Shown: in pieces, positions 19,201 to 22,200 of the stretch | Layout: each line of letters begins with the position of its first letter | Numbering within the stretch: the stretch's first letter is position 1 | NCBI GenBank assembly: GCA_963815455.1 | Contig: CAWFGO010000001.1 | Coordinates: 512,001 to 576,000 of the forward strand | Direction: 5' to 3' | DNA: 64,000 nt | From: an uncultured Verrucomicrobiae bacterium | GTDB lineage: Bacteria > Verrucomicrobiota > Verrucomicrobiia > Chthoniobacterales > UBA10450 | Position numbers: made by a program

Positions 19201-22200
19201 GCGGCCATCGAGTCGGCCCCTTGGCGATATCGCGTGGTTTTCGGGTCGCGGTCGAATACGGAACATTGAATATTCCGCAGTGAGCCAGCCGCCACTGATA
19301 TTTTGTTCTTTCATCCAGCGCGGCACACCTTCTTCAACCATCACGCCGCAAATGACCCGCGTCTTGCCTATCGACACGAGCACCGAACCGCTTGCATGCG
19401 GCGCAATGTTCAATTCGAAATTGACGGGACGAATTTGATCGGGCGCGCGACCATCGCTACGTTGCATTCGGCAATTGTAGAGCGGCCGATCCGATTGCCA
19501 ACAAAAAACTGGAGGTCGGGTCAACTGCCGAAGGAGCGTCATTAACGTTTCGCCAAAGGCCCCCCGTAAAACGAGTCTCCATAGGTAAAGAGCTGCCTGC
19601 GAGGAAAATATTAGATTCCAGAACTCCGCAAAAAAAGTTTCTCTCCGAGTTGACGACGCTCTTGCTTCACGCTAGACTGCCTATCCCGCCTGACGCGGGA
19701 CTCCTCTAATCAAGGAGTTCGTTCTACGTACATTTGGGACTGCAAATTGGAACTCAATTTTGTCCCCGCCTTCGCCAAGGCTACGGCGGGCAAGCCCGGC
19801 TGGCTTAGGAGGAGAATCGGGGCACGAAGTTGAGTTTTTTTGTTGCTCTCGAATGTGCGTAAAGCGTTTACCCCGAAGAATTTCGGGGCTGGTTCTTTGA
19901 CATCTACATACAGGGTAGTAAGAAAGTACAACTTTAAGAGCTGAGTCTGAAATATGAAAGTGGCTGTAGGTTAAGATCTTCAGCCAAGAGAGTTTCAGTT
20001 ATCAAAGAATCTCTGGTCCGGCAGCAGCCGGACCGGAACAGATTGATCAAGCTACAAAGAGCGCATCATGGATGCCTTGGTGCCAATAGGCGATGAAGGA
20101 CGTGGTAAGCTGCGATAAGTCACGGAGAGCGGCAAACACGCTTTGACCCGTGAATTTCCGAATGGGATAACCTGAGCGAGGTAATACTTGCTCGAGTTCC
20201 TGTGAATACATAGCAGGAACATCGCGAAACCCGGTGAAGTGAAACATCTCAGTAACCGGAGGAACAGAAATCGAAAGAGATTCCGTCAGTAGTGGCGAGC
20301 GAAAGCGGAAGAGACCAAACCGGTCAATTTATTGACCGGGGTTGTAGGAGCCCGACGTGGTAGTGCAACGATTAGATGAAGCGAATGGAAAATCGCTCCA
20401 TAGAGGGTGACAGGCCCGTAATCGAAAATCCGCGCACGCCTAGGGATTTCCTGAGTAATACGATGCACGTGAAACTTCGTATGAATCTGCGCCGACCACG
20501 GCGTAAGTCTAAATACTAATTGGCGACCGATAGTGAACCAGTACCGCGAGGGAAAGGTGAAAAGAACCGCTGTGAGCGGAGTGAAATAGTACCTGAAATG
20601 ATGTGCTTACAAGGTGTCAAAGCCCAGCACTTTCTGATTCCATGGAAGACATGTTTTACGTCTACGTGCTAAAGAATCCGAAAAGTGCGGAGCTATACTA
20701 CGGCTTTAGTAGCAACCTGCGGCAGCGCTTCGATAGTGCATCAAAAGATGTCGAAGCATGCTGGATGGAAGTTAGTCTACTATGAAGCGTATGCCGATGA
20801 GCAGGATGCTCGCGATCGCGAACGGATGCTTAAGGATTACGGAGCCGCGAGAGGTCATCTCAAGAAACGTATAGCGCGAAGCACTTCCAAGGGGCCGGAA
20901 AGTGCTGGGTGATGGCGTGCCTTTTGCTTAATGAGTCTGCGAGTTATTATCAGTGGCGAGCCTAAGGCGTTCTGCGCTGGAGGCGAAGCGAAAGCGAGTC
21001 CGAAATGGGCGAACATAGTCGCTGGTAGTAGACCCGAAGCCGAGGTGATCTACCCATGAGCAGGATGAAGATTGCTTAACCGCAATTGAAGGACCGAACC
21101 CGTGAAGGTTGAAAATTTCTGGGATGACTTGTGGGTAGGAGCGAAAGACTAATCAAACCCCGTGATAGCTGGTTCTCCCCGAAATAGCTTGAGGGCTAGC
21201 CTCGTGTGCTGACCTGCGGAGGTAGAGCACTGGATGAACTAGGGCCCATACCAGGGTACCGAACTCAATCAAACTCCGAATGCCGCAGGGTGTAACACGG
21301 GAGTCAGTGCGTGAGGGATAAGCTTCACGCGCGAGAGGCAAACATGCCAGACCAGCAGCTAAGGTGCCCAAATACCGTTCAGTGGAAAGGATGTGAGGTT
21401 GCATAGACAGTGAGGATGTTGGCTTAGAGGCAGCCATCATTTAAACAGTGCGTAATAGCTGACTCATCGAGCGATCTCGCGCCGATAATGATTGGCGATA
21501 AGCGGTATACCGAAGCTCTGGAAGACATTTTGGTTCGCCAGAATGGATTGGTAGGGGAGCGTTCTGAATGCATCGAAGCAGAAGGGGAACCTACTGTGGA
21601 GCGTTCAGAAGTGAGAATGCAGACATGAGTAGCGATAAGCCAGGTTAAATTCCTGGCCGCCGTAAACCCAAGGTTTCCTGGGGAAGGTTCGTCCTCCCAG
21701 GGTTAGTCGGGACCTAAGTCGAGGCCGAAGGGCGTAGACGATGGAAAGCAGGTTCAATATTCCTGCACCGGCTGTGGTTAAGCTTGGTTGTGACATATCA
21801 GTGGAGACGGGCCGTCGATTGAAAGTGGCGGTCTGCTCGCAAGAGCAAGGACGTGGAGGCCTCGGCTGAAGCGGATCTGTTAAAACTTGAATCAAGAAAA
21901 GCACTTAAATGTTCCCACGGTTGCCCGTACCGTAATCCGACACAGGTGGGTGAGTAGAGTATACTCAGGCGCGTGAGTGAAACCTCGTTAAGGAACTCGG
22001 CAATCTAGCCCCGTAACTTCGGAAGAAGGGGTGCCCCGCTGCATTTTGCGAGAGCGCAAAACAACAGTGAAATTATATTGCCAATCCCAAATTACAAGAT
22101 CCAGTAAATCTGAGACGAAGGCTAATGTTTCGGGATCTTGGAGTTTGGCTATTGGGATTCATGCATTTTGAGCCACTGCTCTAAAATGCAGCGGGGTCGC

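Follow-up and report, generated by a model that had tools for sequence, protein, structure and literature searches.

How a small nuclease gene comes to lie inside a 23S rRNA gene, within a hairpin whose closing stem recurs in an unlinked 16S rRNA gene, is the question raised by this locus. The reading that we favour, with slightly better than even confidence, is that the insert is a minimal GIY-YIG element accompanied by non-autonomous hairpins and kept harmless by RNase III excision.

An ORF-bearing hairpin in helix 25 of the 23S rRNA gene

The window, which is the whole 64,000-nt stretch of DNA analysed from the genome under study (G000), has its position 1 at position 512,001 of contig C1. 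The features relevant to this question are as follows, the last of them being on another contig, C5, where the 16S gene is unlinked to the 23S and 5S genes.

20045..23337, + strand: 23S rRNA gene, host of the element (Rfam LSU_rRNA_bacteria, 2702.9 bits)
20623..20909, + strand: hairpin element of 287 nt, which takes up the distal hairpin of helix 25 (H25) in the 23S rRNA
20623..20637, + strand: left arm of the element, pairing over 12 perfect bp, or about 15 once G.U pairs are included
20642..20912, + strand: GIY-YIG ORF, with ATG at 20642 or 20651 and TGA at 20910-20912
20895..20909, + strand: right arm of the element
22036..22194, + strand: second insert of 159 nt, ORF-less, in the same 23S gene at about helix H63, with different arms of a similar style
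23602-23717, downstream of the 23S gene: 5S gene (Rfam, 87 bits)
C5:165396-165496: ORF-less insert of 101 nt in helix h10 of the 16S rRNA (SSU model position ~210)

An earlier note on this DNA had described the H25 insert as a GIY-YIG-coding intervening sequence. That description was borne out by the Rfam placement, in which the extra bases map to LSU model position 583, by a perfect 12-bp stem in which CCCAGCACTTTC (20623-20634) pairs with GAAAGTGCTGGG (20898-20909), and by matches of both halves of the ORF to Pfam GIY-YIG (E 7.8e-5 and 0.014). The folding of the insert gave a z of -5.5. The right arm also forms the last four codons of the ORF, E-S-A-G, and the stop codon falls in mature 23S sequence, as the note had said. 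Its further statement that the paired stem words occur at only two sites of the 3.6-Mb genome held when one mismatch was allowed. Both inserts are thus placed as is usual for intervening sequences (IVSs), in variable rRNA hairpins and each closed by a terminal stem. No Rfam intron family reached the gathering threshold in window positions 14000-28000 or in L001.

In G000 the ORF is split over two frames, and alignment against four relatives confirmed the single extra base reported earlier, placing it at about 20732-20737. This base is probably a read error, since other indel errors lie close by: rph in the same assembly is out of frame over 12 codons when compared with G046. Real decay of ORF copies is also seen in the family and is an alternative for the extra base.

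The encoded GIY-YIG protein

The H25 ORFs are 86-89 aa long, and most of the 289 homologues found (284 by the previous count) are single-domain proteins of 84-89 aa. Among the best 120 of these 289, which were read, 118 have the C-terminal ESAG that corresponds to the translated right arm, which indicates that the arms travel with the protein. Across 37 sequences there is no variation at Tyr5, Tyr17, Gly18, Arg26 or His30, and Glu57 is at least 90% conserved. Values of dN/dS were 0.05-0.27 in 13 of the 15 pairs among six intact copies, the other two being saturated at synonymous sites; by this measure the ORF evolves under purifying selection.

The predicted structure (pLDDT 80.8) had GIY-YIG/Slx1 folds as its top matches, although the matches to the UPF0213, Slx1 and I-TevI catalytic domains were all weak (best E 1.9e-3). 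A PDB sequence search returned a single weak match (E 0.22), and grpIintron_endo spans residues 4-36 only, far below its cut-off. There is no separate C-terminal DNA-binding domain in the protein, which is 86 aa in its entirety. GIY-YIG was the only Pfam match, the four-helix 23S_rRNA_IVP (S23p) protein not being matched, and it is the sole ORF of the element, with no DDE or HUH transposase. The SRM motif was absent up to 300 nt from the G000 element, and stretches of 1 kb taken around eight other copies contained none either. Seven other GIY-YIG paralogues in G000 likewise lack an SRM, which makes the SRM test a weak one. Most of a 41-sequence protein tree lacked resolution, and we therefore claim no root or direction of transfer.

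Distribution and turnover at helix 25

The element was found at H25 in 10 genomes of five genera (G000, G046, G047, G059, G126, G286, G311, G318, G339 and G343), and a bare H25 tip, hypervariable in sequence, in 110 of 354 family genomes. Ten carriers against 110 bare genomes is the sporadic distribution among relatives that is expected of IVSs. A GCAA loop had been taken as the bare state in general; by eye count, however, CCC-GCAA-GGG is present in only 24 of the 110 bare-tip genomes. A scan with one genome per species returned 12 loci, 10 at H25 and two intergenic (L023 and L028), from Chthoniobacterales, Ca. Udaeobacter and other Verrucomicrobiota. At L022 the H25 element lies in a host that is just 87-89% identical in its 23S. 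The ORF is whole in G046 and G047, as had been claimed, but it is also whole more widely, in six of the 11 H25 copies examined (G046, G047, G059, G311, G343 and L022). Among the decayed copies, that of G286 has lost an internal segment, those of G126 and G318 are frameshifted, and G308 has a scar-like tip.

Turnover at this site was evident between close relatives. Over 535 bases of 23S, G059 and G126 show 3 differences, and 96 of 100 positions agree between their ORF-less hairpins at helix H15; identity between their H25 elements, by contrast, is just 83%. As judged from these alignments, the comparison shows that the H25 element has been replaced between near-identical hosts. The G286 element clusters with that of G047 and an intergenic copy (support 100/100), and the host 23S of G286 clusters with those of G059 and G126 (support 84/92). 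The G286 bases at -5/-4 and +4/+5, four paired bases beside the element, are of the G047 type. This pattern suggests co-conversion of the flanks, possibly over +/-5 nt, and does no more than suggest it because the G047-type haplotype occurs in bare genomes too. Host and element identity are correlated (Spearman 0.47, with most tree forks unresolved), so that much of the inheritance appears to be vertical. The assemblies of G126 (350 contigs) and G286 (two different 23S 5' ends) are fragmented, and chimeras are possible in them.

A family of ORF-less hairpins

An arm search of 355 family genomes yielded 14 ORF-less copies, hereafter minis, in 12 genomes, with sizes of 61-101 nt. Ten lie at H15 of the 23S, where they displace an entire 20-nt hairpin (LSU model positions 274-295), and two of 61 nt each lie at about H58 of the 23S. 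One is in the 16S leader of G227, 142 nt upstream of the 16S, and one is the 16S h10 insert of G000. The names H15, H58 and H63 are those that we take these helices to bear. A search with the right arm gave 23 matches, 12 of which lacked a left arm and were discarded as chance; left-arm loci in G086, G038 and at a second site in G059 were discarded for want of a right arm. The only use made of four genomes flagged as unpublished (G002, G007, G014 and G135) was in denominators or as chance matches.

All 14 minis have a 21-bp stem in common, with 99% of cells paired. At three pairs both sides have changed, a score that is inflated by related sequences, and three G.U pairs are retained in 12-13 of the 14. 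The first eight arm bases are invariant in all minis and nearly so in the ORF copies. The orientation of the minis is fixed and their sense strand is always the better folder, which indicates that the hairpin acts as a single strand, whether RNA or DNA. Coding and non-coding copies share terminal inverted repeats, as do MITEs and insertion sequences. At the junctions of six sites the insert either replaces native sequence or joins flush to it, with no flanking direct repeat that would mark a target-site duplication, and the junctions have no strict target motif in common. G000 has no dispersed copies outside its rRNA genes.

The 16S h10 insert is closed by the same stem as the H25 element, and it has the 21-bp arms of the remaining 13 ORF-less copies, which occupy rRNA sites other than h10. 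It had been thought to replace a GCAA loop only; instead it displaces 8 nt, GGGCAACC, the bare site being AAATCAAAGCCG-GGGCAACC-TGGCGCTT in 17 of 151 family genomes. With short flanks the insert folds at -59.5 kcal/mol (z -11), and none of 200 shuffles folded as low. The value of -67.5 kcal/mol given previously was not reproduced, the energy varying with the flank included. The 61-nt interior did not match the ORF element, 82% of shuffles scoring equally well, and derivation of the insert from that element by deletion was rejected for this reason. The interior did match that of the G227 leader hairpin: 36 of 49 bases agreed in the alignment, a score that none of 1000 shuffles reached. Thus the proposal of a miniature copy of the 23S element stands as far as a related ORF-less element in the 16S is concerned, but not as a miniature of the ORF-bearing element.

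The insert is known from the G000 assembly only, as the earlier note had cautioned, and was found in no other genome, metagenome contig or listed run. The h10 junction was present in none of 354 other family genomes. A metagenome scan for it gave 15 matches, none in rRNA and all due to chance, and a search of sequencing runs recovered at most 0.38 of the words per run, about what the flanks alone would give. Together with the indel errors of this assembly, such as that in rph, its restriction to one assembly could be taken to mean that the insert is an assembly artefact. We find this scarcely credible. The interior resembles the hairpin of another genus and not the 23S element, the full 21-bp mini arm is found nowhere else in G000, and the insert coincides precisely with the h10 hairpin and has the orientation of the family. 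The match to the G227 leader hairpin and the arms common to 13 other minis largely remove the worry of mis-assembly.

Minis were present in six of the 10 genomes with the ORF at H25 and in two of 109 bare genomes (p=1.6e-6), or with p=1.3e-4 after close kin, which are not independent, had been merged. This count places G286 with the ORF genomes and leaves out G351, which has another H25 insert, and G090, G168 and G268, in which contigs end early. However, inserts with different arms are found at H63 of ORF hosts as well, so that the co-occurrence may reflect insert-tolerant hosts. Besides the 159-nt insert, G000 has a leader hairpin of 104 nt whose ends are similar, and H63 of G343 contains a second GIY-YIG ORF that is 45% identical and bounded by arms of its own. 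Insert-tolerant hosts with unlinked low-copy rRNA genes might simply accumulate hairpins as passive passengers, the GIY-YIG gene being kept for a host function such as repair or restriction and having no role in spread. The unrelated-arm inserts in the same hosts would fit this account, as would the judgement, in the part of PMC11270868 that was available, that GIY-YIG inserts in rRNA of the CPR fall outside homing, and the description of SsnA as a restriction factor in transformation in the available part of PMC11893778. Nevertheless, we consider it rather improbable, in that the patchy carriers, the replacement in near-identical hosts, the decayed copies and the ectopic copy all fit a cycle of gain, decay and loss.

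Copies outside rRNA and distant relatives

The two intergenic copies, L023 and L028, have the same arms and lie between an opposite-strand gene and a yyaL-like gene, the identity of the latter and the name of the former being what we presume from their sequences. The stop codon of the element overlaps the start of the yyaL-like gene, and the site is empty in five relatives. L023 and L093 are identical in sequence and were counted once, L028 is noisy, and one further protein, P0023, has the same upstream context. In all, the arms are found at at least five rRNA-operon sites (23S H15, H25 and H58, 16S h10 and the leader) and at one yyaL-like start codon.

Among 150 distant representatives of the protein, 12 have extensions that translate rRNA beside H25, H63, about H68, or 16S h6 or h17, a set known from proteins alone in which two have weak E-values and one was judged by eye. 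Another 13 of the 150, also known from proteins alone, run into a prepilin G-F-T-L motif, and one of these belongs to Ca. Tagabacteria. Many of the rRNA-reading or prepilin-fused proteins end in xAG. A search of 331 genomes of the phylum found distant small GIY-YIG proteins in 25, and among the 30 loci read only that of G000 itself was in rRNA or had these arms. A tRNA gene lies nearby at 15 of these 30 loci. Viral contigs contained no relative of the ORF and no arm.

RNase III and the fate of the inserts

An RNase III gene is present in the host. Comparison of the arms with the weak consensus of E. coli RNase III, as given in the available part of PMC4357697, reached 6 of 8 positions in the best register, which 38% of shuffles equalled, and the fit was discarded as evidence. 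Folding of the leader/trailer duplex revealed no arm-like processing stem. RNA contigs from four runs covered the 23S stretch with bare alleles only and none across the insert, and have no bearing on excision.

The arms could instead be no more than a portable RNase III-excisable stem that is carried from one rRNA hairpin tip to another by host recombination and gene conversion; the nuclease gene would have invaded one such stem and home only at H25, and the minis, that of the 16S among them, would be independent of it. We regard this account as possible but doubtful. The minis share 21-bp arms with one another against 12-15 bp with the ORF element, their interiors are unrelated, and three genomes with minis (G227, G335 and G351) have no detectable ORF copy. 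Moreover, one bare H25 allele, found in 17 of the 110 bare-tip genomes, differs little in sequence from the bare h10 site, which would ease recombination between the two genes and fits our preferred reading equally. A precedent is H. fennelliae, in which a 16S and a 23S IVS have a 26-bp segment in common and no ORF is noted in the 16S IVS, as far as the available portion of PMC3335488 goes. On the other hand, a stem that need only be excised should need only to pair, whereas all 14 minis have identical bases at the first eight arm positions. The intergenic ORF copies keep their arms where no rRNA excision is needed, distant GIY-YIG relatives at other sites have arm-like peptide ends, and the fit to the RNase III consensus is not significant.

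Conversely, the minis at 16S h10, H15 and H58 might stay in mature rRNA as expansion segments, being short, stable and placed at naturally variable surface hairpins. This is very unlikely, as almost perfect 21-bp stems are typical of excised IVSs (a 28-bp Coxiella stem is cut by RNase III according to the accessible text of PMC4990558) and the same hairpin occurs in a 16S leader, where membership of the ribosome is impossible.

A proposed mechanism

Under the reading that we favour, that of a GIY-YIG element with dependent hairpins, we infer that the nuclease is active, that the element is mobile and that RNase III excises it. The selfish unit would be an 84-89-aa single-domain nuclease gene within inverted arms, and ORF-less hairpins with the same arms would depend on it. 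The nuclease would recognise the arm, or else a hairpin tip that resembles it, probably in single-stranded form as for Ssn, and would nick or cut this target. Repair from an element-bearing donor would then introduce a copy. At H25 this would proceed in a homing-like manner by homologous recombination; new sites would be reached by short-homology repair in which the native hairpin is replaced with no target duplication. Host RNase III would remove the long stem from the transcript without ligation, and the 23S (with two cuts in G000) and the 16S would be fragmented yet functional.

More tentatively, and with confidence somewhat short of even, we propose that these elements represent an undescribed minimal mobile class, in which a nuclease of about 85 aa mobilises its own arms together with ORF-less hairpins, and whose members survive by landing at sites where they are neutralised or tolerated. 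Tolerated landings in such a class would be those handled by RNase III (rRNA tips and leaders) or by prepilin peptidase (pilin leaders), and gene junctions. If this were true, many 'orphan' bacterial rRNA IVSs would be non-autonomous derivatives of such elements.

The element may explain how rRNA inserts of this kind spread. In the available parts of PMC11270868, PMC4990558 and PMC3335488, the spread of IVSs is described merely as probable horizontal transfer; a candidate enzyme, candidate recognition arms, empty and filled alleles of several sites and non-autonomous copies together make it testable. With inserts at 16S h10 and at up to three 23S sites, this abundant soil lineage is expected to have fragmented rRNA and to yield over-long amplicons, and a site-specific nuclease of 86 aa would, if active, be of interest as a tool.

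Comparison with known systems

GIY-YIG homing endonucleases of group I introns, of the I-TevI type, have this catalytic domain and undergo gain, replacement and decay at a single allele. The H25 element resembles them in the domain, with its Tyr, Arg, His and Glu residues intact, and in gain, replacement and decay at one allele, but it has no DNA-binding domain and no self-splicing intron and its arms occupy several sites that are unrelated to one another. MITEs, REP/RAYT and Rickettsia palindromic elements form autonomous and non-autonomous pairs with common ends, their hairpins being tolerated in genes. In contrast to these, the present family has no DDE or HUH transposase, no target-site duplication and a very low copy number.

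The Ssn single-stranded DNA nucleases with their NTS/SRM hairpins (PMC11893778, available in part) are alike in having a small single-domain GIY-YIG gene, of about 95 aa against 84-89 aa in most homologues here, and a hairpin repeat of fixed orientation; the available text also raises a mobile-element origin. Here, however, no SRM lies near the copies tested, and the gene lies within a single inverted pair, into which its last codons extend. The copies are few and in rRNA, whereas the repeats of Ssn number hundreds and lie between genes.

Our literature search, to which most subscription papers were external, found no description of arm-bounded GIY-YIG elements with ORF-less partners and none of rRNA IVSs in Ca. 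Udaeobacter. H25 IVSs, ORF-bearing IVSs, GIY-YIG ORFs in CPR rRNA inserts and an IVS segment shared by 16S and 23S are in print already. The non-intron GIY-YIG inserts of CPR rRNA (PMC11270868) likewise have a small GIY-YIG ORF at variable sites. The host here is instead a member of the Verrucomicrobiota, and the ORF is found mainly at a single site that shows signs of turnover; the available portion of that paper mentions no arms, minis or copies outside rRNA and argues against homing. Sites or repeats relevant to the novelty of the present element may be listed in the tables of that paper.

The classic rRNA IVSs of Salmonella, Leptospira, Coxiella and Campylobacter/Helicobacter, as covered by the accessible parts of PMC4990558 and PMC3335488, are alike in their terminal stem, patchy distribution and occasional ORF, and helix 25 is one of their three common sites. 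The present ORF differs in being a GIY-YIG gene under purifying selection and not one for the four-helix S23p protein of the Coxiella/Leptospira type, and here one arm recurs at five rRNA-operon sites and at the start codon of a protein gene.

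Further insertions in the rRNA genes

The 23S rRNA gene carries a second insert at another site, where the insertions found in related genomes include one with a GIY-YIG ORF of its own. These inserts, together with a hairpin in the 16S leader, are as follows:

window 22036-22194, ORF-less 23S insert of 159 nt, with a closing stem of 13-15 bp that differs from that of the H25 element
L018:3929-4202 (stretch around the 23S gene of family genome G343), second GIY-YIG ORF of that genome, at the same 23S site and with its own 18-bp arms
L001:4994-5097 (C5:164993-165096 of the source genome), hairpin of 104 nt in the 16S leader, with a stem of at least 25 bp

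The shared 23S site, which we take to be about H63, is occupied by other inserts in G059 and G335. The G343 ORF is 45% identical to that of the H25 element; its arm lacks a stop codon, and the reading frame runs into 23S sequence. The ends of the 16S-leader hairpin are similar to the family arms, yet diverged. On the same 16S stretch, a fluoride riboswitch was seen at L001:10168-10246.

H25 of L110 (G351) and H15 of both L022 and L107 (G335) hold inserts of 108-137 nt that lack an ORF and whose arms differ in sequence from those of the family. The H25 tip of G308 (C46:50556-50606) resembles both arm ends with 3 nt between them, and is possibly a deletion scar. The G286 bin holds two differing 23S 5' ends (L106 and L114), which represent either a second operon or contamination; the H15 mini-hairpin differs between them, and H25 is bare in one and holds an ORF element with a 5' deletion in the other.

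Genomic surroundings and other GIY-YIG ORFs

The 23S and 5S genes are flanked by the following:

window 17818-18623 and 18673-19542, minus strand, gmd-like and rph genes, frameshifts in both
window 24050-29465, minus strand, gene cluster just 3' of the 5S gene, identified by the look of the sequence and presumably encoding Vsr-type endonuclease-like, cytosine methyltransferase-like, response regulator-like and ATPase/histidine kinase-like proteins

The frameshifts are consistent with indel errors of this assembly. Elsewhere in the genome there are seven small GIY-YIG ORFs (C3:553095, C3:491117, C1:174011 and four more), three of which are adjoined by tRNA genes, a layout that is common for such ORFs across the phylum.
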